Shown: piece after piece, positions 1 through 18,745 of the stretch
How the letters are laid out: every line of letters starts with the position of its first letter
Numbering within the stretch: the first letter of the stretch is position 1
Source: a virus
Lineage: Duplodnaviria > Heunggongvirae > Uroviricota > Caudoviricetes
Strand: one strand, 5' to 3'
Virus record (IMG/VR): IMGVR_UViG_2563366948_000001
Span: 1 to 18,745 of that record
Length of the DNA: 18,745 nt
The notes under the pieces: model-generated
The model's database searches: none
What the model saw: only the letters and a program-made list of their open reading frames with translations
Told to the model about the DNA's origin: nothing
Position numbers and translations under genes: made by a program

Positions 1-1284
1 TTACTTCTTCGCCTCTGCAACCACTTTACTACCCACGCCGCGGTTATTGTATTCCCACATGCGGTTGTAGTTAGTGTCATTCAGATTGCGCTGTATTTCG
101 TCGTTATCATCTACGCTGCCGGTATTACCCGCAAACGGACGATTAGAGATCACCGCATCGGCCCACGGTTTAGCCGTGTTAAAACCTTCGTTGATGGCGC
201 TATCACGGATCACCACCTGACCGTTGGTATTGGCATCAACATCCAGCGAGCGGCCCAGTTGCGCCACACCATCACCGAAAGCATTGAAACGGCTGTTTAC
301 GGCGAGGAAACCGTAGTAAATGTTGGACAGCGTAGCCGGTGCAAACACATACGCTTCTTGCTGAGTACGTGAGTTCACCACGCGGAATTCGGTGTTATCG
401 AACACCACTGCGCCGCGACCAGAAACGATATCCACATCCCCTTCAATGTAGCTGTTGGTCACCAGCGTACGCGGCTGACGATTTGTTTCCAGACGGTTCT
501 GCACACCGCTGTTGGTGACAAAGAAGGTGTTCTGACGACCGAGAATGTTAACGTTGTTAATCTGTACCTGGTCACCATCAGTACGCAGTGCCACCGCCGG
601 ATGGTTACCTGCATCTACGCTATCGCCCAGCGTGTTTTCGATGGTCAGATTTTGCAGTTGCAGGCCATTGTTTTGTGACCAGAAGACCGCAGAGCAGAGA
701 ACACCGATACTGTCGCTGCGTTTGCTCTGGCAGCTATCGTACATATACCACGCTGGTTTACCTGGCATATATTTGCCGCGCGGGTTGACGTCGTGACGCC
801 AGTCGGCAGGGCTCATGCCACCATCAAGGGAAAGCCCAATCTTCACATCAATCGGTTTTTCACCTGTACCGTACAGAGTAATTCCACCCGGAGCGGCAGG
901 GACATATACCGTTCCCTGATACTCACCAGGCATCACGGCAATATACTGGCGCTTGTTGGTACGCTTGATAATTGCCGCATCTACCGCCGCCTGAATCGTG
1001 GTATGCGTTACACCTTGAGTGCCCGCCGGGCCGACAACAAAGTCAGGTTGCGCAGGCAGGGTAATCGGGGAAGGATTCCACGCTGCAGCACCTGGTGTCA
1101 GGGATGCAAAATAGTGTTGAGCATCGAAATTCTGCGCTTCTTTTGCCGACAGAATCGGGCGAGAAGAGGTACCAGGCGCGGTTTGATCAGAAGGACGTTG
1201 ATCGGGCGGGGTTGAGCTACAGGCGGTCAGCGTCACGCCAAAAGCCAATGCCAGCGCCAGACGGGAAACTGAAAATGTGTTCAC
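1..1284 (-). CDS. ybhC: YbhC-like outer-membrane lipoprotein (pectinesterase-family, putative acyl-CoA thioesterase); host gene flanking attB-lambda
   Basis: 427-aa ORF in track; N-terminal signal with lipobox (LTAC); sequence recognised as E. coli YbhC; start codon appears to be GTG. Confidence 0.8.
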   Translation of the reverse strand: MNTFSVSRLALALAFGVTLTACSSTPPDQRPSDQTAPGTSSRPILSAKEAQNFDAQHYFASLTPGAAAWNPSPITLPAQPDFVVGPAGTQGVTHTTIQAAVDAAIIKRTNKRQYIAVMPGEYQGTVYVPAAPGGITLYGTGEKPIDVKIGLSLDGGMSPADWRHDVNPRGKYMPGKPAWYMYDSCQSKRSDSIGVLCSAVFWSQNNGLQLQNLTIENTLGDSVDAGNHPAVALRTDGDQVQINNVNILGRQNTFFVTNSGVQNRLETNRQPRTLVTNSYIEGDVDIVSGRGAVVFDNTEFRVVNSRTQQEAYVFAPATLSNIYYGFLAVNSRFNAFGDGVAQLGRSLDVDANTNGQVVIRDSAINEGFNTAKPWADAVISNRPFAGNTGSVDDNDEIQRNLNDTNYNRMWEYNNRGVGSKVVAEAKK

Positions 1285-1418: not shown

Positions 1419-2489
1419 TTATTTGATTTCAATTTTGTCCCACTCCCTGCCTCTGTCATCACGATACTGTGATGCCATGGTGTCCGACTTATGCCCGAGA
1501 AGATGTTGAGCAAACTTATCGCTTATCTGCTTCTCATAGAGTCTTGCAGACAAACTGCGCAACTCGTGAAAGGTAGGCGGATCCCCTTCGAAGGAAAGAC
1601 CTGATGCTTTTCGTGCGCGCATAAAATACCTTGATACTGTGCCGGATGAAAGCGGTTCACGACGAGTAGATGCAATTATGGTTTCTCCGCCAAGAATCTC
1701 TTTGCATTTATCAAGTGTTTCCTTCATTGATATCCCGAGAGCATCAACATGCAATGTTGTTGGGATGGCAATTTTTACGCCTGTTTTGCTTTGCTCGACA
1801 TAAAGATATCCATCTACGATATCAGACCACTTCATTTCGCATAAATCACCAACTCGTTGCCCGGTAACAACAGCCAGTTCCATTGCAAGTCTGAGCCAAC
1901 ATGGTGATGATTCTGCTGCTTGATAAATTTTCAGGTATTCGTCAGCCGTAAGTCTTGATCTCCTTACCTCTGATTTTGCTGCGCGAGTGGCAGCGACAGG
2001 GTTTGTTGTTATATGGCCTTCAGCTATTGCCTCTCGGAATGCATCGCTCAGTGTTGATCTGATTAACTTGGCTGACGCCGCCTTGCCCTCGTCTATGTAT
2101 CCATTGAGCATTGCCGCAATTTCTTTTGTGGTGATGTCTTCAAGTGGAGCATCAGGCAGACCCCTCCTTATTGCTTTAATTTTGCTCATGTAATTTATGA
2201 GTGTCTTCTGCTTGATTCCTCTGCTGGCCAGGATTTTTTCGTAGCGATCAAGCCATGAATGTAACGTAACGGAATTATCACTGTTGATTCTCGCTGTCAG
2301 AGGCTTGTGTTTGTGTCCTGAAAATAACTCAATGTTGGCCTGTATAGCTTCAGTGATTGCGATTCGCCTGTCTCGGCCTAATCCAAACTCTTTACCCGTC
2401 CTTGGGTCCCTGTAGCAGTAATATCCATTGTTTCTTATATAAAGGTTAGGGGGTAAATCCCGGCGCTCATGACTTCGCCTTCTTCCCAT
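1419..2489 (-). CDS. int: Lambda integrase (tyrosine recombinase)
   Basis: 356 aa beginning MGRRRSHERRDLPPNLYIRNNGYYCYRDPRTGKEF, recognised as lambda Int; adjacent to attL. Confidence 0.95.
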   Translation of the reverse strand: MGRRRSHERRDLPPNLYIRNNGYYCYRDPRTGKEFGLGRDRRIAITEAIQANIELFSGHKHKPLTARINSDNSVTLHSWLDRYEKILASRGIKQKTLINYMSKIKAIRRGLPDAPLEDITTKEIAAMLNGYIDEGKAASAKLIRSTLSDAFREAIAEGHITTNPVAATRAAKSEVRRSRLTADEYLKIYQAAESSPCWLRLAMELAVVTGQRVGDLCEMKWSDIVDGYLYVEQSKTGVKIAIPTTLHVDALGISMKETLDKCKEILGGETIIASTRREPLSSGTVSRYFMRARKASGLSFEGDPPTFHELRSLSARLYEKQISDKFAQHLLGHKSDTMASQYRDDRGREWDKIEIK

Positions 2490-2978: not shown

Positions 2979-3074
2979 ATCACTACCTCCAAAGCATGAG
3001 TGAGATGACAACGTAACATTGATTGGAGATTAACAATAGATTGCTGATGTAAAAGATATGTATAAGCTTCGCTT

Positions 3075-3728
3075 TCAAAGTGGAGGCTCTGGTAGCGGCA
3101 TCCAGTGAGTTACGTCATCCAAGATATTTCCTGATAAATACGTGAAAGCTCTATATTTTTTGTAATCAATTGGATTTACAACCCAGTTCCAATATGCGGC
3201 CACGATTTCACCTTGACTAAATGCCAGTAACATTTTGGTGTCTTCCGGCATTCGATCACTACAGCTTATCCAACCACCCGGAGTTACCGGAGAGTTGCCG
3301 CGTTCTTTAATGTGCAAGCGAGGCTCACCATCTTTTGGTTCAGGCCACTGGCGTTCCATGTTGATCTTCAATTTATTTTCCATAGCAGCGGTAATTTCAG
3401 CATCACTGATACCAGCACGGCGCTGTGCATCCCACAACAGAAACTGCATATCAGCCCACTCGCTAAGATCGTCTGGTTCGGCTGCGGCTTCCAGTGCCTC
3501 TTTTGAGAGATGTTTCAGCGGACCAATGGGGCCAACGCAGCCAAATGTGGAGTCAGACCATTTGGCATGCTCGTGGCGAATCTGTTCGCGTTCCAGTGAG
3601 GCGAGAGCGATTTTAAATGCTGTAAGCATGTGTGCTTGATCGTTGTCGAGTCCGAATGGCATTTCATCTCGTGCTGACTCAATACTGGTAATCGTATTTT
3701 GTAGCCATTCTTTGGTAAAAGTGCTCAT
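3075..3728 (-). CDS. Phage protein with MazG-like nucleotide pyrophosphohydrolase-type N-terminal region and DUF551-like C-terminal region
   Basis: 217 aa; central EALEAAAEPDDLSEWADMQFLLWDAQRRAGIS...AMENKLKIN resembles MazG-type helices; C-terminal ...THWMPLPEPP resembles the prophage DUF551 motif; ATGA overlap with upstream ORF. Confidence 0.6.
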   Translation of the reverse strand: MSTFTKEWLQNTITSIESARDEMPFGLDNDQAHMLTAFKIALASLEREQIRHEHAKWSDSTFGCVGPIGPLKHLSKEALEAAAEPDDLSEWADMQFLLWDAQRRAGISDAEITAAMENKLKINMERQWPEPKDGEPRLHIKERGNSPVTPGGWISCSDRMPEDTKMLLAFSQGEIVAAYWNWVVNPIDYKKYRAFTYLSGNILDDVTHWMPLPEPPL

Positions 3729-4096
3729 CGTAAAATATCCTCTATACTGGTAAGTCCTTCATTATTTAGCCAGATCATGGCGTCATCCGGCAACTTGCTG
3801 TCTGGTTTGGCGTTTTTGAGAGAGGAACTCAGTCGCTTAATCCACATTGTCACCTCAGTAATGCGCCTGTCTTTGCCTTCCAGCTCAACACGCAGCTTCC
3901 CTACCGTTAGCGCAATATCCTCGTTCTCCTGGTCGCGGCGTTTGATGTATTGCTGGTTTCTTTCCCGTTCATCCAGCAGTTCCAGCACAATCGATGGTGT
4001 TACCAATTCATGGAAAAGGTCTGCGTCAAATCCCCAGTCGTCATGCATTGCCTGCTCTGCCGCTTCACGCAGTGCCTGAGAGTTAATTTCGCTCAC
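3725..4096 (-). CDS. Ea22-like early-left protein (hypothetical)
   Basis: 123 aa; GTG start with AGAGAGG Shine-Dalgarno; GTGA overlap with orf73 stop, so translationally coupled. Confidence 0.55.
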   Translation of the reverse strand: MSEINSQALREAAEQAMHDDWGFDADLFHELVTPSIVLELLDERERNQQYIKRRDQENEDIALTVGKLRVELEGKDRRITEVTMWIKRLSSSLKNAKPDSKLPDDAMIWLNNEGLTSIEDILR

Positions 4097-4314
4097 TTCG
4101 AACCTCTCTGTTTACTGATAAGTTCCAGATCCTCCTGGCAACTTGCACAAGTCCGACAACCCTGAACGGCCAAGCGTCTTCGTTCATCTATCGGATCGCC
4201 ACACTCACAACAATGAGTGGCAGATATAGCCTGGTGGTTCAGGCGGCGCATTTTTATTGCTGTGTTGCGCTGTAATTCTTCAATTTCTGATGCTGAATCA
4301 ATGATGTCTGCCAT
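4093..4314 (-). CDS. TraR/DksA-family C4 zinc-finger protein (lambda Orf73-like)
   Basis: 73 aa with CCECGDPIDERRRLAVQGCRTCASC four-Cys zinc finger typical of TraR/DksA; lambda carries a TraR-like orf73 in this region. Confidence 0.75.
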   Translation of the reverse strand: MADIIDSASEIEELQRNTAIKMRRLNHQAISATHCCECGDPIDERRRLAVQGCRTCASCQEDLELISKQRGSK

Positions 4315-4360
4315 CTTTCATTAATCCCTGAATTGTTGGTTAATACGCTTGAGGGTGAAT

Positions 4361-4390
4361 GCGAATAATAAAAAAGGAGCCTGTAGCTCC
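4361..4390 (-). terminator. Candidate intrinsic terminator in the leftward operon
   Basis: GGAGC-CTGTA-GCTCC hairpin (4376-4390) followed on the minus strand by TTTTTTATTATT (4361-4375). Confidence 0.4.
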
Positions 4391-5731: not shown

Positions 5732-5772
5732 GCTGCCACCTTCTGCTCAGTGGCTTTCTGTTTCAGGAAACC
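5728..5772 (-). pseudogene. bet: bet (Red-beta) 3' remnant: last ~14 codons and stop only
   Basis: Minus-strand reading ends ...[14 protein letters not shown], matching the lambda Bet C-terminus; upstream residues do not match Bet. Confidence 0.7.
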
Positions 5773-5776
5773 GAAT

Positions 5777-6028
5777 TTTGCAGGGTGGGCTAACGATATC
5801 CGTCTGATGCGTGAACGTGACGGCCGTAACCACCGCGACATGTGCGTGCTGTTCCGCTGGGCATGCCAGGACAACTTCTGGTCCGGTAACGTGCTAAGTC
5901 CGGCCAAACTCCGCGACAAGTGGACCCAACTCGAAATCAACCGTAACAAGCAACAGGCTGGCGTGACAGCCGGAAAATCAAAACTCGACCTGACAAACAC
6001 TGACTGGATTTACGGGGTGGATTTATGA
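5777..6028 (+). pseudogene. O: Replication initiator O, C-terminal ~83 codons only (no start, no ori iterons)
   Basis: FAGWANDIRLMRERDGRNHRDMCVLFRWACQDNFWSGNVLSPAKLRDKWTQLEINRNKQQAGV...LDLTNTDWIYGVDL matches the lambda O C-terminus; stop overlaps P start (ATGA). Confidence 0.8.
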
Positions 6029-6726
6029 AAAACATCGCCGCACAGATGGTTAACTTTGACCGTGAGCAGATGCGCCGGATCGCCAACAACATGCCGGAAC
6101 AGTACGACGAAAAGCCGCAGGTACAACAGGTAGCGCAGATCATCAATGGTGTGTTCAGCCAGTTACTGGCAACTTTCCCGGCGAGCCTGGCTAACCGGGA
6201 CCAGAACGAACTGAACGAAATCCGCCGCCAGTGGGTTCTGGCTTTCCGGGAAAACGGGATCACCACGATGGAACAGGTTAACGCAGGAATGCGCGTAGCC
6301 CGTCGGCAGAATCGACCATTCCTGCCATCACCCGGGCAGTTTGTTGCCTGGTGCCGGGAAGAAGCATCCGTTACCGCCGGGCTGCCAAACGCCAGCGAGC
6401 TGGTTGATATGGTTTACGAGTATTGCCGGAAACGTGGCCTGTATCCGGATGCAGAGTCTTATCCGTGGAAATCAAACGCGCACTACTGGCTGGTTACCAA
6501 CCTGTATCAGAACATGCGGGCCAATGCGCTGACTGATGCGGAATTACGGCGCAAGGCTGCCGATGAACTGGCCTGTATGACAGCGCGAATTAACCGTGGT
6601 GAGGCGATACCTGAACCAGTAAAACAACTTCCTGTTATGGGCGGGAGACCGCTTAATCGTGTTCAGGCTCTGGCGAAGATCGCAGAAATCAAAGCGAAGT
6701 TTGGGCTGAAAGGAGCAAGTGTATGA
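6025..6726 (+). CDS. P: Lambda replication protein P (DnaB helicase loader)
   Basis: 233 aa MKNIAAQMVNFDREQMRRIANNMPEQYDEKPQVQQVAQIINGVFSQLLATFPASLANRDQNELNEIRRQW..., recognised as lambda P. Confidence 0.95.
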   Translation: MKNIAAQMVNFDREQMRRIANNMPEQYDEKPQVQQVAQIINGVFSQLLATFPASLANRDQNELNEIRRQWVLAFRENGITTMEQVNAGMRVARRQNRPFLPSPGQFVAWCREEASVTAGLPNASELVDMVYEYCRKRGLYPDAESYPWKSNAHYWLVTNLYQNMRANALTDAELRRKAADELACMTARINRGEAIPEPVKQLPVMGGRPLNRVQALAKIAEIKAKFGLKGASV

Positions 6727-6896
6727 CGGGCAAAGAGGCAATTATTCATTATCTGGAGACGCACAAGAGCTTCTGTGCGCCGGACGTTGCTGTGACAACA
6801 GGTGTGACATTAACCAGCATAAATCAGGCTGCGGCAAAAATGGCGCGGGCAGGAATCCTGGTCATTGATGGTAAGGTCTGGCGAACGTTTGTTTAA
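6723..6896 (+). pseudogene. ren: ren, truncated (57 codons; N-terminus lambda-like, premature end)
   Basis: ATG overlaps P stop; MTGKEAIIHYLETHKSFCAPDVAVTTGVTLTSINQAAAKMARAGILVIDGKVWRT then FV-stop, whereas lambda Ren is 96 aa. Confidence 0.6.
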
Positions 6897-7042
6897 CGGT
6901 TAGCTACTCAGGATGATAGGGCGGGGCAAGTGAGTATGAAGCGGATTTTAAGGAATGCCATCAGAGTTTGGAAATAAAGTGGGTTTTCTAGTGGCAAGAG
7001 ACTTGATAATATTTAGTTCTTTGAATCCAAGGAGATAGGGTT

Positions 7043-7537
7043 ATGAGAAAATTTATTTTAGCCTTTGTTATAAGTGCCTCGTTTACAGCAAATGCTGGTG
7101 TAGAGAAGTTAGGGCCGTGGATAACAAAGTCTGAGATAAATAAAATGACTGACCAGACTGACTTTGTGGCTCTTAATTTATCACCAGATTCATATAACAA
7201 AGCAGGTACTGATCGTGCAACTTCACTGGTGTTGCGTTGTAGTGATAACAAAACAGATGCCTATTTATCATTCAATGATTATATGGGTTCGGACAACCCA
7301 AGAATTACAGTGCGGTTAGATGGCGGAAAGCCGGTCAAGAGTGTTTGGGGAGGTGGGGAAGGCGGTGATTCTGCATTTGCTCCACAACCAATACAATTTA
7401 TAAAGACCTTGGCTAAGCATAAAAAAGCTATTTTTGGGTTTGAACCTTATGGATCAACTATGCAAGTAGTTGAGTTTGACTTGTCTGAGATTGATAAGGT
7501 TGTGGAAAAAATTTCACAGTCTTGCAATTGGAAATGA
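7043..7537 (+). CDS. Secreted or periplasmic protein of unknown function (moron)
   Basis: 164 aa with signal peptide MRKFILAFVISASFTANA and AxA cleavage motif; strong AAGGAGA Shine-Dalgarno 8 nt upstream; AT-rich codon usage unlike flanking lambda DNA; own terminator. Confidence 0.7.
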   Translation: MRKFILAFVISASFTANAGVEKLGPWITKSEINKMTDQTDFVALNLSPDSYNKAGTDRATSLVLRCSDNKTDAYLSFNDYMGSDNPRITVRLDGGKPVKSVWGGGEGGDSAFAPQPIQFIKTLAKHKKAIFGFEPYGSTMQVVEFDLSEIDKVVEKISQSCNWK

Positions 7538-7554
7538 CAAAAAAATTTCATATG

Positions 7555-7580
7555 AACCCAGTTGGCGCTGGGTTTTTTAT
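7555..7580 (+). terminator. Intrinsic terminator of the secreted-protein gene
   Basis: AACCCAG-TTGGCG-CTGGGTT hairpin followed by TTTTTTATTT, 18 nt after the stop codon. Confidence 0.7.
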
Positions 7581-8174
7581 TTCAGTAGCCAATAATGCAT
7601 TCAAAATCTCTTACTTGAGAAACGGCCTATTTGAGATTTCAGTCGTGGCAGGATGATCAGTTGATTCGAGTATTGACGCATTTGCGTTCGGAGCGATTAC
7701 AGTAGATTGTAAATAATAATGAGAAACACATAGCCACATAGCCACCCCGTGGTATTGAAACCATATAATGTTGGATTTGAAAACAGATCTTTTCCCATGT
7801 ATTAATAACTACATCCCCGCGAGTAATTCAAAAAGGAGGGCCCAATTTTGTCCGAGTTTTTGTATTCCCCCGCATGCCGCTGCGGAGCACTACATCTGAG
7901 TGTCTGACTAGGGGATAAAATTAGACTGGATAGTGAGAAGAAAGTGGCGCGCTAGGCTGTGCCGAGTGCTACCAGTACACCTTGGGGGTGTGCAGCTTTC
8001 GCCGAGACTGTAGTGGGTATCGGTTAATGCACGAAAAACCGAGAGGTCAGACAACCAATTTGCCGTAGGATTGTTTCCGGTGCGATACCGGTCTACTAAC
8101 TGAAAGCAATGCGAAAAAGCATAAACTCGGTCCTTCAGTCGCCCTACACACTATTTACTAAGAAGGGCTGAAGC

Positions 8175-8375
8175 ATGGATACAATTATTACATGGATGGG
8201 AGATCGTCTGTTGGGGGGGACACAAAAATCCGATCTGCGGCAGATGGCGATCACTGGATTAACTTCCGCGATTTGTTCAACAATTTTGTACACTGAAAAA
8301 TTAAAACATGGTGAGCCTATTAACCCAAACGAAGAAGAAAAACTTTATAGGCTTTGGTATGAAGGAAACGCTTGA
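8175..8375 (+). CDS. Small hypothetical protein (66 aa)
   Basis: ORF MDTIITWMGDRLLGG... with GAAGGG Shine-Dalgarno-like motif upstream; no recognisable family. Confidence 0.4.
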   Translation: MDTIITWMGDRLLGGTQKSDLRQMAITGLTSAICSTILYTEKLKHGEPINPNEEEKLYRLWYEGNA

Positions 8376-8581
8376 AAGAATAAAGCACAATTAAAACCTT
8401 TGATTTGCGATAATCAACTTGCCATAATTAAGTAATCGGAGCCTGAACAACTCCGGTGACTTCTGCGCTAAACGGGGACGTTTATGCGCACATACAATCC
8501 AACCTCTCTTCTCCATTCACAGATGCAGAAATGCACCTGCGATATTTTGCATCCAGCGTTTGATCTCTGCGGAGGTGAAGC

Positions 8582-9037
8582 GTGAACCTCCCACAAGATG
8601 GTATCAAATTGCATCGCGGTAACTTCACCGCTATCGGTCGGCAGATCCAGCCTTATCTGGAGGACGGCAAATGCTTTCGTATGGTGCTTAAACCGTGGCG
8701 CGAGAGACGCAGTCTTTCCCAGAATGCACTCAGCCACATGTGGTACAGCGAAATCAGTGAATACCTCATCAGCAGGGGTAAAACGTTCGCCACTCCAGCT
8801 TGGGTAAAAGATGCTCTCAAACACACTTATCTCGGTTATGAAACCAAAGAACTGGTTGATGTCGTAACCGGTGAAATCACCACCATTCAGTCATTACGTC
8901 ATACCTCCAATCTTGATACCGGAGAGATGTATGTCTTCCTGTGTAAGGTTGAAGCCTGGGCGATGAATATTGGCTGCCACCTGACTATTCCGCAGAGCTG
9001 CGAGTTCCAGCTGCTGCGCGACAAGCAGGAGGCGTAA
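8582..9037 (+). CDS. ybcN: NinB-family recombination protein (DLP12 YbcN-like)
   Basis: 151 aa, GTG start with GGAGG Shine-Dalgarno; sequence recognised as YbcN/NinB family ([13 protein letters not shown] motif). Confidence 0.8.
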
Positions 9038-9207
9038 TGGCTACACCGCTTATTCGTGTCATGAACGGACACATCTACAGAGTACCAAATCGTCGTAAGC
9101 GTAAGCCTGAGCTGAAACCATCCGAAATACCAACACTGCTCGGATATACCGCCAGCCTGGTTGATAAAAAATGGTTGCGACTGGCAGCAAGGAGGAATCA
9201 TGGCTGA
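9037..9207 (+). CDS. ninE: NinE-family protein
   Basis: 56 aa [56 protein letters not shown]; start overlaps ybcN stop (TAATG); below track size cutoff. Confidence 0.75.
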   Translation: MATPLIRVMNGHIYRVPNRRKRKPELKPSEIPTLLGYTASLVDKKWLRLAARRNHG

Positions 9208-9490
9208 TTTGAGAAAAGCAGCGCGTGGTCGGGAATGCCAGGTAAGAATCCCTGGCGTATGTAATGGCAACCCTGAAACGTCTGTACTGGCACATATCCG
9301 GCTGACTGGATTGTGCGGCACCGGTACGAAACCGCCAGACCTGATTGCCACCATTGCATGTTCTGCCTGCCACGACGAAATCGACCGCCGCACGCATTTT
9401 GTTGACGCTGGATATGCAAAAGAATGCGCGCTGGAAGGTATGGCGAGAACACAGGTTATCTGGCTGAAAGAGGGGGTTATTAAGGCGTGA
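9200..9490 (+). CDS. ybcO: YbcO-like nin-region protein (Cys-rich, putative metal-binding nuclease-like)
   Basis: 96 aa from ATG at 9200 preceded by AGGAGG; [37 protein letters not shown]...; track ORF extends upstream without a Shine-Dalgarno. Confidence 0.75.
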
Positions 9491-10643: not shown

Positions 10644-11726
10644 TTAGAACTGGTAAACCATACCTACAGCAACGATATCATCGGTAGCAACGCCAGATGC
10701 TTTCGTGAAATCGCTCTTATCAATCAGGTTGATTTTGTAATCAACAAAAGTGGACATATTTTTGTTGAAGTAATAGGTTGCACCTACATCAATATATTCA
10801 ACCAGGTCCTGATCACCCCACGCACCCAAGTCTTTTCCTTTAGATTGCAGGTAAGCAACGGACGGACGCAGACCGAAGTCGAACTGATATTGTGCAACTA
10901 CTTCGAAGTTTTGTGCTTTGTTGGCAATATGGTTATTACCAAAAACAGTCATGTTCTGGGTTTCAGAATAGGTGGTAGCCAGATAGATGTTGTTCGCATC
11001 ATATTTCAGACCAGCTGCCCATACTTCAGCATTTTGACCAGATGCATTCAGGCTGTTGTTACCGTAGATAACCTGATTATTAGTGCGGTCAGATTTAGCA
11101 TAGGTTGCACCTACACCGAATCCTTCATACTCATAAGTAGTGGAGAAACCGAAACCATCACCATTAGCTTCAGTTACGTCAGTGCGGTCATTTTTACCCT
11201 GATACTGAGCAGCAAAGTTCAGACCATCAACCAGACCAAAGAAGTCGTTGTTACGATAAGTTGCAACACCAGTGGTGCGACCAGTCATGAACACATCTGT
11301 TTGGGTCCAGGTATCGCCACCGAATTCTGGCAGAACGTCAGTCCACGCACCGATGTCGTATGCTACACCGTAGTTACGGCCGTAATCGATTGAGCCGTAG
11401 TCACCGAATTTCAGGCCTGCAAATGCAAGACGGGTTTTGTCTTTGGAGGAACCTTGAGATTCAGCGCGGTTGCCTTTGAATTCATATTCCCACTGACCGA
11501 AACCAGTCAGTTGATCGTTGATTTGGGTTTCACCTTTGAAGCCAAGACGGGCATAAGTAGTATCACCATCATCTGCATCATTAGAGGAGAAGTAGTGCTT
11601 AGCATTAACTTTCCCGTACAGATCCAGCTTGTTACTGTCTTTATTATAAATTTCAGCTGCCTGAGCAGACATCGCCATCAGTACTGATGCAGCTACAGCA
11701 GAAATTGCCACTGTTAATTTTTTCAT
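10644..11726 (-). CDS. nmpC: Phage-encoded general porin (OmpC/OmpF family; NmpC/Lc-like), apparently intact
   Basis: 360 aa with signal peptide [23 protein letters not shown], porin N-terminus [16 protein letters not shown] and C-terminal ...VYQF; sits between Q and the lysis genes on the opposite strand. Confidence 0.9.
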
Positions 11727-14186: not shown

Positions 14187-14271
14187 GACTTTTGTCGTTC
14201 AGCTATTAAATCCCATTACGAAGTAGACCAGAACGGCCAACGGGTCCTTTCCGGCGATCCGACAGGTTACG

Positions 14272-14283
14272 GGGCGGCGACCT
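14272..14283. other. cos: cosN cohesive-end sequence GGGCGGCGACCT; cosQ/cosB flank it within about 14200-14460
   Basis: Sequence CAGGTTACG-GGGCGGCGACCT-CGCGGGTTTTCGCTATTTATGAAAATTTTCCGG matches the lambda cos junction; lies 189 nt upstream of the nu1 ATG as in lambda. Confidence 0.85.
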
Positions 14284-14460
14284 CGCGGGTTTTCGCTATT
14301 TATGAAAATTTTCCGGTTTAAGGTGTTTCCGTTCTTCTTCGTCGTAACTTAATGTTTTTATTTAAAATACCCCCTGAAAAGAAAGGAAACGACAGGTGCT
14401 GAAAGCGGGCTTTTTGGCCTTTGTCGTTTCCTTTCTCTGTTTTTGGCCGTGGAATGAACA

Positions 14461-15915
14461 ATGGAAGTCAACAAAAAGCAGCTGGCTGACATTTTCGGTG
14501 CGAGTATCCGTACCATTCAGAACTGGCAGGAACAGGGAATGCCCGTTCTGCGAGGCGGTGGCAAGGGTAATGAGGTGCTTTATGACTCTGCCGCCGTTAT
14601 AAAATGGTATGCCGAAAGGGATGCTGAAATTGAGAACGAAAAGCTGCGCCGGGAGGTTGAAGAACTGCGCCAGGCCAGCGAGGCAGATCTCCAGCCAGGG
14701 ACTATTGAGTACGAACGCCATCGACTTACGCGTGCGCAGGCCGACGCACAGGAACTGAAGAATGCCAGAGACTCAGCTGAAGTGGTGGAAACCGCATTCT
14801 GTACTTTCGTGCTGTCGCGGATCGCAGGTGAAATTGCCAGTATTCTCGACGGGATCCCCCTGTCGGTGCAGCGGCGTTTTCCGGAACTGGAAAACCGACA
14901 TGTTGATTTCCTGAAACGGGATATCATCAAAGCCATGAACAAAGCAGCCGCGCTGGATGAACTGATAACCGAATCCCATCTCGGCAAGGAGCTGCTGGAA
15001 AAAGTCGAGCTGACGGAGGATAACGCCAGCAAACTGGAGGAGTTTTCGAAAGAGTGGCAGGACGCTAACGATAAGTGGAATGCCATGTGGGGCGTCAAAA
15101 TTGAGCAGACCAAAGACGGCAAACATTATGTCGCGGGTATTGGCCTCAGCATGGAGGACACGGAAGAAGGCAAGCTGAGCCAGTTTCTGGTTGCCGCTAA
15201 CCGTATCGCGTTTATTGACCCGGCAAACGGGAATGAAACGCCGATGTTTGTGGCGCAGGGCAATCAGATATTTATGAACGACGTGTTCCTGAAGCGCCTG
15301 ACGGCCCCGACCATTACCAGTGGTGGAAATCCACCGGCATTTTCCCTGACATCAGACGGAAAGCTGACCGCTAAAAATGCGGATATCAGTGGCAGTGTGA
15401 ATGCGAACGCCGGGACGCTCAACAATGTCACGGTAAATGAAAACTGTACGATTAAGGGCATGCTGGAGGCGACTCAGGTCAGAGGTGACTTCGTTAAAGC
15501 TGTATCCAAATCATTCCCGAAACAGGCTGGTACGTGGGGTAATACGGAAACACCAAACGGGACGGTTACAGTCACCATCAGCGATGATCATAACTTTGAC
15601 CGTCAAATCATTATTCCGCCCATTATCTTTAACGGAATAGCGTATAGCGATCCGGGAAGTGGTAATAACCCGGGAGGTACAAGATACACGGGTTATGGTT
15701 TTGAAGTTCGCAAAAACGGTGTATTAATCGCATCCAGAGAAACTAAAGGGGCCATTCCCGGTAGCTACAGTGCGGTTATTGATATGCCGAGTGGCAGGGG
15801 AAGCGTCACTCTGGAGTTTAAGGTTTTCCATAAAGGCAATCAGCGGGCAGGTAATATCACCGACTGTACGGTGATTGTGACCAAAAAAGCCGCTTCCGGC
15901 ATCAGTATTCGTTGA
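14461..15915 (+). CDS. In-frame fusion: terminase small subunit Nu1 (residues 1-169) joined to the C-terminal ~315 residues of tail-tip protein J
   Basis: N-terminus [34 protein letters not shown]...AALDELI is lambda Nu1; from [21 protein letters not shown]... onward it matches the lambda J C-terminal region; single 484-aa ORF. Confidence 0.85.
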
Positions 15916-15984
15916 AATTGTTATAACCCATATAAGGGCACCAGAAATGGTGCCTTTTTTATTGCAGAAAAGCGAGAGGTAATT

Positions 15985-16353
15985 ATGCGTAAACTTTATG
16001 CCGCCATTTTTTCCGCAGCCATTTGTCTGGCCGTATCCGGTGCGCCTGCATGGGCATCTGAACATCAGTCCACGCTGAGCGCGGGGTATCTTCATGCCTC
16101 GACGAACGTTCCCGGCAGCGATGATCTGAACGGGATTAACGTGAAATACCGTTATGAGTTTACGGACACACTGGGGCTGGTGACGTCATTCAGCTATGCA
16201 GGAGACAAGAATCGCCAGCTGACCCGTTACAGCGATATCCGCTGGCATGAAGATTCCGTTCGTAACCGCTGGTTCAGCGTAATGGCGGGGCCGTCTGTGC
16301 GCGTGAATGAATGGTTCAGCGCGTATGCGATGGCGGGTACCTTCTGCCCGTAA
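15985..16353 (+). pseudogene. lom: lom (Ail/Lom-family outer-membrane protein), truncated after codon 118
   Basis: MRKLYAAIFSAAICLAVSGAPAWASEHQSTLSAGYLHAS... matches lambda Lom up to ...WFSAYAMAG, then TFCP-stop; lambda Lom is ~206 aa. Confidence 0.8.
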
Positions 16354-17539
16354 GGTGAATGGTAAGGCGCTTTCAGCGGATATAACACTGACGCCGAAAG
16401 ATATTGGTACGCTTAACTCAACAACAATGTCATTCAGCGGTGGTGCTGGTTGGTTCAAATTAGCAACGGTAACCATGCCACAGGCGAGTTCTGTTGTTTC
16501 AATTACGTTGATTGGTGGCGCGGGATTTAACGTGGGGTCACCTCAACAGGCAGGTATATCTGAACTTGTTTTGCGTGCAGGTAATGGTAATCCGAAGGGG
16601 ATTACTGGTGCTTTATGGCAGCGCACATCGACAGGGTTTACAAATTTTGCCTGGGTCAATACATCTGGTGATACTTACGATATTTACGTTGCAATCGGAA
16701 ATTATGCGACTGGTGTAAATATTCAATGGGATTATACCAGTAATGCCAGCGTGACGATTCATACGTCACCAGCATATTCTGCTAATAAGCCGGAAGGGTT
16801 AACGGACGGTACAGTTTATTCACTCTATACGCCATCAGAGCAGTTTTATCCGCCTGGCGCACCAATCCCGTGGCCATCAGATACCGTTCCGTCTGGCTAT
16901 GCCCTGATGCAAGGGCAGACTTTTGACAAATCTGCATACCCGAAACTTGCAGCCGCTTATCCGTCAGGCGTGATCCCTGATATGCGTGGCTGGACGATTA
17001 AGGGCAAACCCGCCAGTGGTCGTGCCGTATTGTCTCAGGAACAGGACGGCATTAAATCGCACACCCACAGCGCCAGCGCATCCAGTACGGATTTGGGGAC
17101 GAAAAACACATCGTCGTTTGATTACGGAACCAAATCCACGAATAACACCGGGGCGCATACCCATAGTATTAGCGGGACTGCAAATAGTGCCGGTGCGCAC
17201 CAACACAAGAGTTCCGGTGCATTTGGTGGCACGAACACGAGCATTTTCCCTAATGGTTATACCGCGATTTCAAATCTAAGCGCGGGGATTATGAGCACAA
17301 CAAGCGGTAGTGGCCAGACTCGTAATGCAGGGAAGACATCATCAGATGGTGCTCATACCCACTCGCTGTCCGGCACTGCTGCAAGCGCAGGCGCACACGC
17401 ACATACTGTCGGTATTGGTGCTCATACGCACTCCGTTGCGATTGGCTCACATGGACACACCATCACCGTTAACGCTGCTGGTAACGCGGAAAACACCGTC
17501 AAAAACATCGCATTTAACTATATTGTGAGGCTTGCATAA
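16339..17539 (+). pseudogene. stf: Side tail fibre Stf, C-terminal ~400 codons only
   Basis: Open frame continuous with track ORF 16307-17539; contains tail-fibre-type His-rich repeats (GAHTHS, GAHQHK, GAHAHT, GSHGHT); no credible start; abuts truncated lom. Confidence 0.75.
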
Positions 17540-18120
17540 TGGCATTCAGAATGAGTGAACAAGCACGGACCATAAAAATTTATAATCTGCTGGCCGGAAC
17601 TAATGAATTTATTGGTGAAGGTGACGCATATATTCCGCCTCATACAGGTCTGCCAGCAAACAGTACCGATATTGCACCGCCAGATATTCCGGCTGGCTTC
17701 GTGGCTGTTTTCAACAGTGATGAGTCATCGTGGCATCTCGTTGAAGATCATCGGGGTAAAACGGTTTATGACGTGGCTTCCGGCGATGCGTTATTTATTT
17801 CTGAACTCGGTCCGTTACCGGAAAATGTTACCTGGTTATCGCCGGGAGGGGAGTTTCAGAAGTGGAACGGCACAGCCTGGGTGAAGGATACGGAAGCAGA
17901 AAAACTGTTCCGGATCCGGGAGGCGGAAGAAACAAAAAACAGCCTGATGCAGGTAGCCAGTGAGCATATAGCGCCGCTTCAGGATGCTGTGGATCTGGAA
18001 ATCGCAACGGAGGAAGAAACCTTGTTGCTGGAAGCCTGGAAAAAGTATCGGGTGTTGCTGAACCGTGTTGATACATCAACTGCACCGGATATTGAATGGC
18101 CAGTAGCACCTATAGGGTAA
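17539..18120 (+). CDS. tfa: Tail fibre assembly protein Tfa
   Basis: 193 aa [54 protein letters not shown]..., recognised as lambda Tfa; start overlaps stf stop. Confidence 0.9.
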
Positions 18121-18200
18121 ATTCGTAATGATTACCTAAATACGTTATTCTTTTGTTAAAAAAGTGATTTTGCTATAGGTAGGGAGTATGTTCTTGGATT

Positions 18201-18237: not shown

Positions 18238-18256
18238 GTACGGTAATGACTCCAAC

Positions 18257-18634
18257 TTATTGATAGTGTTTTATGTTCAGATAATGCCCGATGACTTTGT
18301 CATGCAGCTCCACCGATTTTGAGAACGACAGCGACTTCCGTCCCAGCCGTGCCAGGTGCTGCCTCAGATTCAGGTTATGCCGCTCAATTCGCTGCGTATA
18401 TCGCTTGCTGATTACGTGCAGCTTTCCCTTCAGGCGGGATTCATACAGCGGCCAGCCATCCGTCATCCATATCACCACGTCAAAGGGTGACAGCAGGCTC
18501 ATAAGACGCCCCAGCGTCGCCATAGTGCGTTCACCGAATACGTGCGCAACAACCGTCTTCCGGAGACTGTCATACGCGTAAAACAGCCAGCGCTGGCGCG
18601 ATTTAGCCCCGACATAGCCCCACTGTTCGTCCAT
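18257..18634 (-). CDS. insB: IS1 transposase InsB segment (made in vivo as InsAB' by -1 frameshift)
   Basis: 125-aa [51 protein letters not shown]..., recognised as IS1 InsB. Confidence 0.9.
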
Positions 18635-18678
18635 TTCCGCGCAGACGATGACGTCACTGCCCGGCTGTATGCGCGAGG

Positions 18679-18745
18679 TTACCGACTGCGGCCTGAGTTT
18701 TTTAAGTGACGTAAAATCGTGTTGAGGCCAACGCCCATAATGCGG
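18679..18745 (-). CDS. insA: IS1 InsA, 3' portion only (5' end beyond window)
   Basis: Minus-strand reading ...[18 protein letters not shown]-stop with stop at 18679-18681; contains the slippery A6C site. Confidence 0.8.

Follow-up and report, generated by a model that had tools for sequence, protein, structure and literature searches.

A lom-stf deletion scar, probably formed at short homology, in a defective lambdoid prophage of Escherichia coli

Introduction

In a lambdoid prophage of Escherichia coli KTE61 a truncated gene of the Ail/Lom family runs directly into the back part of a side tail fibre gene (stf), which raises the question of how the two genes came to be joined and whether anything functional was left on either side of the join. 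The original prediction, made from the letters of the sequence, was that the join is a deletion scar, with lom breaking off at codon 118 and the missing parts of both genes leaving a lysogenic-conversion gene and the side tail fibre inactive. The window considered here, that is, the whole stretch of DNA that was analysed (18,745 nt), is 100% identical to draft scaffold KE137010.1 of E. coli KTE61.

The prophage and its other scars

The window is an irreversibly defective lambdoid prophage at attλ of KTE61, between ybhC and ybhB-bioA. After the integrase gene the order is P, the nin region, Q, a porin gene, lysis genes, bor, Nu1'::'J, lom', 'stf, tfa and IS1 (Table 1), and beyond the window the source contig continues with an AraC-type gene, IS3 debris, ybhB and then bioABFC. 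The IS1 copy is inserted 122 bp downstream of tfa, 1.9 kb from the lom-stf junction, and the hairpin that precedes lom occupies a position annotated as a terminator in phages Ayreon and 434.

At least two scars besides the lom-stf join are present in this prophage. The neighbouring nu1::J junction falls at a GATA (14964-14967) and corresponds to about 17.3 kb missing in lambda coordinates, and the scar between bet and the replication gene O has cost 5.9 kb, including the immunity region, and its joint (near 5764-5769) shows no more than AA, within an imperfect CAG(G/A)AA.

Table 1. Positions of the features discussed, in window coordinates
Feature	Position	Strand	Description
ybhC	1-1284	-	left host flank
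Lambda-type integrase gene	1419-2489	-	left end
nu1'::'J fusion	14461-15915	+	Nu1 residues 1-169 joined in frame to J residues 822-1137 (484 aa); neighbouring first scar
Terminator-like hairpin	15934-15957	+	10-bp stem, then T run; 3' of the J-derived ORF, 5' of lom
lom'	15985-16353	+	truncated Ail/Lom-family gene; 118 authentic codons, then out-of-frame TFCP and TAA
Imperfect homology block	16325-16338		found at both parental endpoints; ATGCGA-TGG-CGGGT (lom) versus ATGCGAATGGTCGGGT (stf)
CGGGT	16334-16338		perfect 5-bp microhomology, single copy kept; junction 16338/16339 is its right edge
'stf	16334-17539	+	3' 401 codons (residues 587-987 of the 987-aa Stf) and stop; no native start or RBS
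tfa	17539-18120	+	intact tail fibre assembly gene, 193 aa; overlaps the stf stop codon; PF02413
IS1 copy	18243-18745	-	runs off the window end; starts with the IS1 terminal sequence GGTAATGACTCCAACTTATTGATAG; InsB ORF 18257-18634; PF03400

Reference alleles

The original prediction looked to lambda lom, orf401 and orf314 for the alignment, and in this respect it did not hold, as the alleles are not those of lambda. Lambda Lom is 38.7% identical to the window sequence, no match to orf401 was obtained, and the resemblance to orf314 is confined to residues 181-410 of the fragment (the last 230 of Stf), which are 69% identical; lambda was rejected as a reference because alleles this distant cannot define the breakpoint, and KE58 and E. 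coli 55989 were used instead. The proper reference is the Qin-type J-lom-stf-tfaQ block that these two strains carry intact at the Qin locus, with pinQ just downstream of tfaQ. Similar copies are frequent in E. coli, with a median of 16 matching places per genome. C21, the sole intact attλ prophage examined, shows the intact order Nu1...J-lom(199 aa)-stf-tfa, with alleles that are divergent from those of the window (lom about 90% identical at the nucleotide level, the front half of stf not alignable).

The junction and the missing DNA

In blastn comparisons, window positions 14964-16338 correspond to 3001-4375 of the KE58 locus (L001), with 1373 of 1375 nt identical, and positions 16339-17539 correspond to 6449-7649 of the same locus (1198/1201 nt identical). 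Exactly 2,073 bp are absent from between these flanks relative to both KE58 and 55989, with the same endpoints in the two relatives and no inserted bases, which supports the claim of a deletion scar. The missing DNA comprises the last 81 codons of lom and its stop (246 nt), a 64-nt spacer, and stf codons 1-586. The prediction spoke of a missing lom 3' half and stf 5' half; both parts are indeed gone, and 'half' is an approximation, since the loss amounts to 41% of lom and to the front 59% of stf.

The breakpoint carries an ambiguity of 5 bp, and the microhomology that the original prediction proposed looking for at this point is present. Parental copies of CGGGT are found in lom codons 117-118 and in stf codons 587-588, and microhomology of at least 5 bp has P = 0.0057 for random lom-stf junctions in KE58 sequence. 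The extended match at the endpoints (14/16 positions, gapped; anchored alignment score 12) has P = 3e-4 when set against random lom-stf position pairs. The junction 42-mer reads GCGTATGCGATGGCGGGTACCTTCTGCCCGTAAGGTGAATGG. The length of the deletion is divisible by three, yet the fusion is out of frame because the parental lom and stf genes sit in different frames. Five nucleotide differences from KE58 were counted in lom' and 'stf together (three of them in 'stf), all synonymous, a pattern that would fit divergence while the genes were functional, followed by a comparatively recent deletion.

Neither the rest of the window nor the 7.6 kb that come next in the source contig contain a copy of the missing 2,073 bp, and inversion or relocation of the lost segment was rejected on this ground. 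A search of Rfam gave no non-coding RNA at the junction, the sole hit being IS009, inside tfa. Three minus-strand ORFs over the junction region (16186-16476, 16227-16388 and 15724-16095) have no Pfam match and were treated as mechanical ORFs.

A 132-nt tandem repeat ends at the right breakpoint, where a conserved fibre motif lies, and other truncated Stf ORFs start near this point. Judging by position, some local hot-spot effect may operate at the right breakpoint.

What remains of lom

The ORF at the left of the junction encodes 122 aa and ends in ...AMAG-TFCP-stop, and residues 1-118 are 100% identical to residues 1-118 of the 199-aa KE58 Lom, in agreement with the predicted truncation. Lom' carries an N-terminal signal sequence and matches the family profile PF06316 (Ail_Lom; E = 4e-70) over profile positions 1-119 of 199. 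A full-length barrel would be expected to cover all 199 profile positions and to end in the terminal aromatic ...GVGYKF; Lom' does neither, and the terminal ...GYKF of both KE58 Lom and lambda Lom is absent from it. This partial coverage, together with the lost ...GYKF, marks lom' as a fragment of a family gene and not as a functional member. A full-length Lom relative matches the solved lambda Lom structure (9wso) and OmpX/Ail structures, and by this comparison Lom' would still have its signal sequence and approximately the N-terminal half of an eight-stranded barrel of the OmpX/Ail type. As the C-terminal strands and ...GYKF are gone, Lom' should not be able to fold and assemble as an eight-stranded barrel.

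What remains of stf and tfa

To the right of the junction lies the fragment that had been described as about 400 Stf codons in another frame from about position 16339 with no start of its own, and this description proved accurate. From its residue 10 to its end, the mechanical ORF (16307-17539, 410 aa) agrees at every position (100%) with residues 587-987 of KE58 Stf. The fragment keeps the C-terminal end of a side tail fibre, with the Collar (PF07484) and Phage_fiber (PF03335) domains followed by the tfa chaperone gene. It lost the phage_tail_N domain (PF08400) and the Phage_fiber_2 repeats, both of which are present in the intact protein; PF08400 occupies residues 1-134 of KE58 Stf, so that 'stf has no N-terminal attachment domain, and the DNA for this domain is also absent from the window.

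The in-frame ATG codons at 16307 and 16325 are derived from lom and the GTG at 16355 from stf, and no Shine-Dalgarno motif was found before any of the three. The stf fragment is without a start of its own because the two ATG codons are lom-derived and lack a Shine-Dalgarno motif, and it is presumably untranslated. In any case an Stf fibre would have no virion to attach to, since all other tail genes are deleted too. The predicted inactivation of lom and stf is well grounded, with the C-terminal strands of Lom and PF08400 gone.

The Tfa protein of the window is 94% identical both to lambda Tfa and to KE58 TfaQ. In every copy seen, 'stf and tfa are free of stops and frameshifts, and the scarred copies differ from one another by at most three positions across 'stf, one of them non-synonymous (S233F).

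The most probable mechanism

The scar is very probably a pseudogene-forming deletion in a defective prophage that came about by short-homology illegitimate recombination. The ancestor would have had the usual J-lom-stf-tfa order, with alleles essentially identical to those of the Qin-type block of KE58 and 55989. From this arrangement the 2,073 bp would have been lost between the direct CGGGT copies, each inside the 14/16 imperfect repeat, with one copy kept. The most likely route would be slipped mispairing in replication, and single-strand annealing after a break would be an indistinguishable alternative; five perfect bases are a short homology that would fit slippage, single-strand annealing or gyrase-type illegitimate recombination alike.

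Short-homology recombination is favoured because the loss is precise, a single copy of a G+C-rich repeat is kept, the repeat has an imperfect extension, and there is no signature of a mobile element or a recombinase. The parents are collinear with contiguous flanks, the join contains no inserted bases, and the repeat is above chance. The same signature is seen at the other scars, in the GATA at nu1::J and the AA between bet and O.

Our picture of the parent comes from strains other than KTE61, and their block is at the Qin locus and not at attλ. The deletion need not have occurred in this prophage or at this site, because the doubly scarred nu1'::'J-lom'::'stf-tfa module is also found in the Qin-type late region of another genome (L020).

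Deletions at short homology are reportedly a well-documented class, with accounts attributed to Albertini et al. (in 1982) and, under the name of replication slippage, to Lovett (in 2004). Clayton et al. (2016, PMC4948707) describe replication slippage that deletes DNA lying between short direct repeats or quasi-repeats rich in G+C. The lom-stf scar is like such deletions in its precision, in its G+C-rich direct repeats with one copy kept, in its imperfect flanking match and in having no insert; it differs in the 2.07-kb spacing of the repeats, which is at the long end for slippage.

Alternative explanations

It could be argued that the junction arose by exchange between two resident lambdoid prophages, one contributing lom and the other stf, or by a chromosomal rearrangement. 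The many similar copies in E. coli genomes would offer partners for such an event, the nu1'::'J-lom'::'stf-tfa module occurs in two backgrounds (at attλ in the window and its source contig, and in the Qin-type context of the other genome), and the alleles match those of the Qin locus in KE58 and 55989 better than those of the intact attλ prophage C21. Such an origin is quite improbable, however, as each of the two intact genomes has a single collinear block to which both flanks are 99.8-99.9% identical, and the right chromosomal flank is still ybhB-bioA, so that a single-crossover inversion did not take place. Moreover, an event between two elements would need the same 5-bp homology anyway. 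The two contexts are explained more simply by later homologous exchange of a block that was already scarred, and as a single collinear parent accounts for both flanks, it is more economical to assume a plain deletion with homologous exchange afterwards. Judging by its two contexts and its Qin-like alleles, the scarred block has moved between prophages, and the deletion may not have occurred at attλ.

A second alternative grants the deletion and holds that the fusion is functional. A C-terminal Stf protein of about 394 aa would be made from the GTG at 16355, which is in the stf frame and 1 nt past the TAA, by termination-reinitiation after the lom' stop (16351-16353), behind the lom signals; in variants of this idea, the host keeps the Stf fragment as an anti-phage factor that blocks the receptor, or as a reservoir for recombination. 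The lom gene is reported to be expressed in lysogens. Some public annotations start a 394-aa 'tail fiber protein' at this very GTG, the intactness of 'stf and tfa in all copies seen could be read as a sign of selection, and the module has reached two prophage contexts. In addition, a chimeric e14 Stf remnant blocks T2 adsorption (PMC12529663). Against this, none of the candidate starts has a Shine-Dalgarno motif and it is not evident how a fibre fragment in the cytoplasm would reach the cell surface, while the intactness of 'stf carries no information on selection because the copies are too similar. A functional fusion is therefore very unlikely. The same low weight attaches to the conjecture, drawn from the arrangement of the genes, that the scar couples the Stf receptor-binding module and Tfa to lom, such that a fibre protein could arise in uninduced cells and benefit the host. 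If this were true, a host benefit, such as receptor masking against superinfecting phages in the manner of e14 StfE2, would explain the spread into two prophage backgrounds.

It is also conceivable that a dedicated enzyme made the deletion, either a serine invertase of the Pin/Gin/Cin type, using a crossover site where the constant and variable parts of stf meet together with a quasi-site in lom, or IS1 transposase by an adjacent deletion. The intact relatives carry pinQ next to tfaQ, Pin enzymes rearrange Stf remnants in e14 (PMC12529663), an IS1 copy stands close to tfa, and the right breakpoint is at a module boundary. What speaks against an invertase is the junction itself, which has no crossover site and no 2-bp core and has the 5-bp repeat instead: no Din-type crossover site (consensus AAACC-NN-GGTTT) was found near 16338, and the only match to it in the window, at 7397, is at chance level. 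The e14 16-mer likewise has no match in the window with fewer than four mismatches, the nearest lying 230 nt from the junction. Read in the direction of stfE/stfP, the e14 pix site codes for GLGEG a little before the collar domain, which would place it at about window position 16840 and not at 16338; for this reason the likeness of CCTTCT at 16340-16345 to the e14 repeat CCTTCTCCCAAACCAA was rejected, its orientation and position both being wrong. The pin gene is absent from the window, with IS1 and not pin following tfa, and no recombinase-family genes were called in the 7.6 kb of the source contig beyond tfa. As to IS1, lom is joined directly to stf, and the end of the element is not at the junction. 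On the sequence, an origin by a Pin-type invertase or by IS1 appears largely refuted and is exceedingly improbable.

The distribution of the junction bears on whether it is real. The exact 122-aa product was found on 23 contigs, the junction 60-mer was exact in all 10 of the loci fetched for it, and two further isolate contigs (L019 and L020) also carry the lom-stf scar. These junction-bearing contigs differ from the window by scattered SNPs; NCBI isolates, ENA metagenomes and Logan assemblies are all represented, and a single contig is common to at least 20 samples. The junction was found in none of 5,426 complete E. coli genomes and in none of the GTDB species representatives, which indicates that it marks a small lineage or set of lineages. 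The nu1::J junction was likewise found in no complete E. coli genome, and contigs with the nu1::J fusion have the lom-stf scar as well wherever their sequence reaches that far. That the junction is an assembly or sequencing artefact, for instance a collapsed repeat, has a practically negligible probability in spite of the draft status of the source scaffold and the absence from complete genomes, because independent projects and assemblers yielded the identical junction in at least 10 contigs and the flanks share no repeat beyond the 14/16 nt. No sequencing correction could restore a full-length lom or stf frame, the cause being a 2,073-bp deletion.

Comparison with known systems

The nearest analogue is the Qin prophage of K-12 (nohA-stfQ-tfaQ-pinQ), where a deletion has likewise left behind a remnant of Nu1, a C-terminal piece of Stf that lacks a start, and a complete tfa; between K-12 stfQ-tfaQ and window positions 16842-18121 the identity is 97%. 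The Qin late region differs in that one deletion runs from nu1 to stf, with its nu1 breakpoint 22 nt further 3', no J or lom remnants were left, and pinQ was kept, whereas in the window 'J and lom' are retained, the lom-stf deletion is a separate one, IS1 takes the place of pin and the prophage sits at attλ. The K-12 nohA::stfQ join is a different and independent deletion, and so is the nu1'::'tfa join of TW14425.

Loss of the side tail fibre has a counterpart in lambda PaPa, whose stf is reportedly split by a frameshift into orf-401 and orf-314, in contrast to the functional side tail fibre of Ur-lambda, a finding said to go back to Hendrix and Duda in 1992. In both cases stf is inactivated and tfa is intact; lambda PaPa owes this to a single-base frameshift, with both stf halves kept and lom intact, whereas the window lost 2,073 bp including the attachment domain. 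In the Rac prophage of K-12, lomR is interrupted by IS5. There, too, a lysogenic-conversion gene of the Lom family is inactivated beside stf in a cryptic prophage, the difference being that Rac has an insertion with both halves of the gene present, while the window lom has had its 3' 41% deleted and the rest fused to stf.

A further comparison is offered by e14, whose P segment (stfE/stfP, tfaE/tfaP, pinE) is rearranged by PinQ and PinE to give StfE2 (PMC12529663). Stf C-terminal remnants and tfa persist in a cryptic prophage there as they do here, and the e14 remnant has a phenotype at the level of the host. The e14 system has inverted pix sites and an invertase and is reversible; in the window the deletion is irreversible, and neither a pix-like site nor a pin gene is present.

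What the scar means

The lom-stf scar adds one more case to a very well-known process, the ordinary decay of prophages, and with the neighbouring scars the late region gives an overall picture that suggests a recurrent, stepwise erosion of virion genes. For annotation, its value lies in identifying EOV54543.1 ('hypothetical protein') and EOV54544.1 ('side tail fibre assembly protein') of KTE61 as the two halves of a pseudogene fusion. As a lineage marker, the junction singles out a limited number of E. coli genomes and of contigs from metagenomes, and it shows that a scarred late-gene block has been exchanged between attλ and Qin-type prophages. With regard to the lambdoid prophages more generally, the scar offers a cleanly resolved example of a decay in which deletions at 2-5 bp of homology remove the virion genes and leave behind tfa and the tip of the fibre.

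Exchange of the scarred block between prophages

The doubly scarred block, in which the nu1'::'J fusion is followed by lom'::'stf and tfa, is not confined to an attλ background. In the assembly GCA_012744775.1 (L020), positions 5780-9394 correspond to 14240-17854 of the window and are 99.8% identical to it, similarity beginning about 220 bp upstream of nu1. There the block sits behind a late region of Qin type (csp genes, gnsB, ydfO, and ynfO), whereas the attλ prophage has the bor region at this place. This arrangement, as read from the sequences compared, indicates that the two prophage types have exchanged the scarred module.

Truncated Stf C-terminal ORFs from other E. coli (P0030, P0026, P0023, and P0020), compared with 16337-16370 of the window, start within about 30 nt of the lom-stf junction point, and their upstream sequences differ from that of the window. 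In strain KE58, which has an intact Qin-type block, a 132-nt tandem repeat finishes its third copy at the same point. These observations suggest that the conserved Stf motif located here is a place where module boundaries or breakpoints recur.

The tfa gene (548 of 576 nt identical to KE58) is much more diverged from that strain than the adjacent 'stf (1198 of 1201), and several sites that are polymorphic among the scarred copies (17446, 17694, 17725, and 17846) coincide with KE58 variants. This pattern suggests that other resident copies of tfa have served as partners in gene conversion. A strong Rfam match to IS009 (RF02111; 221 bits, E = 3e-55) lies wholly within the tfa coding sequence; what is catalogued as an 'RNA family' corresponds in this case to a conserved part of tfa. 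Downstream of tfa, the window has IS1 at the site occupied by pinQ in intact Qin-type relatives, and beyond IS1 the source contig (L003) carries an AraC-family gene and IS3-family fragments, followed by ybhB-bioA.

Features of the prophage remnant (window positions)
Feature	Position	Strand	Remarks
Third scar	~5764-5769		bet to replication gene; by comparison with C21 (L015)
OmpC/NmpC-type porin gene	10644-11726	-	360 aa; between Q and lysis genes
Nu1::J fusion ORF (first scar)	14461-15915		junction 14964-14967; 484 aa, in frame
tfa	17539-18120
IS009 (RF02111) match	17882-18080	+
IS1	18243-18745	-	L003 12259 onward; 122 bp downstream of tfa

Other deletions and retained cargo

At the first scar, residues 1-169 of Nu1 are joined to residues 822-1137 of J with a 4-bp microhomology (GATA) at the joint, and head and tail genes amounting to about 17.3 kb in lambda coordinates are absent. 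A related attλ prophage, that of strain TW14425 (L014), has a different deletion that joins nu1' to 'tfa. Its left breakpoint in nu1 is identical to that of the window (...GAACTGATA up to the joint; window 14961-14967, L014 28770-28776), and the GATA microhomology is present at this joint as well, whereas in K-12 nohA the breakpoint lies 22 nt further on. The breakpoint common to the window and TW14425 may reflect coincidence, a deletion hot spot, or sequential derivation.

At the third scar, about 5.9 kb that strain C21 carries in its intact attλ prophage (L015 ~17769-23684) has been lost, including gam, kil, the repressor/cro region, and most of an O-like gene; perfect homology at the joint is limited to AA, within an imperfect CAG(G/A)AA. 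In other samples, a Logan contig (ERR3328415; 1-544 / 543-2134) places window position 3286 directly against 15831, a further loss of about 12.5 kb from the early region through the end of the nu1::J ORF in which the lom'::'stf junction is kept. The prophage may have decayed further here, or the join may have been made in assembly.

The porin gene is apparently intact, and DLP12 has a porin gene in a like position, between Q and the lysis genes. The porin may be the likeliest 'useful' cargo of this prophage remnant.
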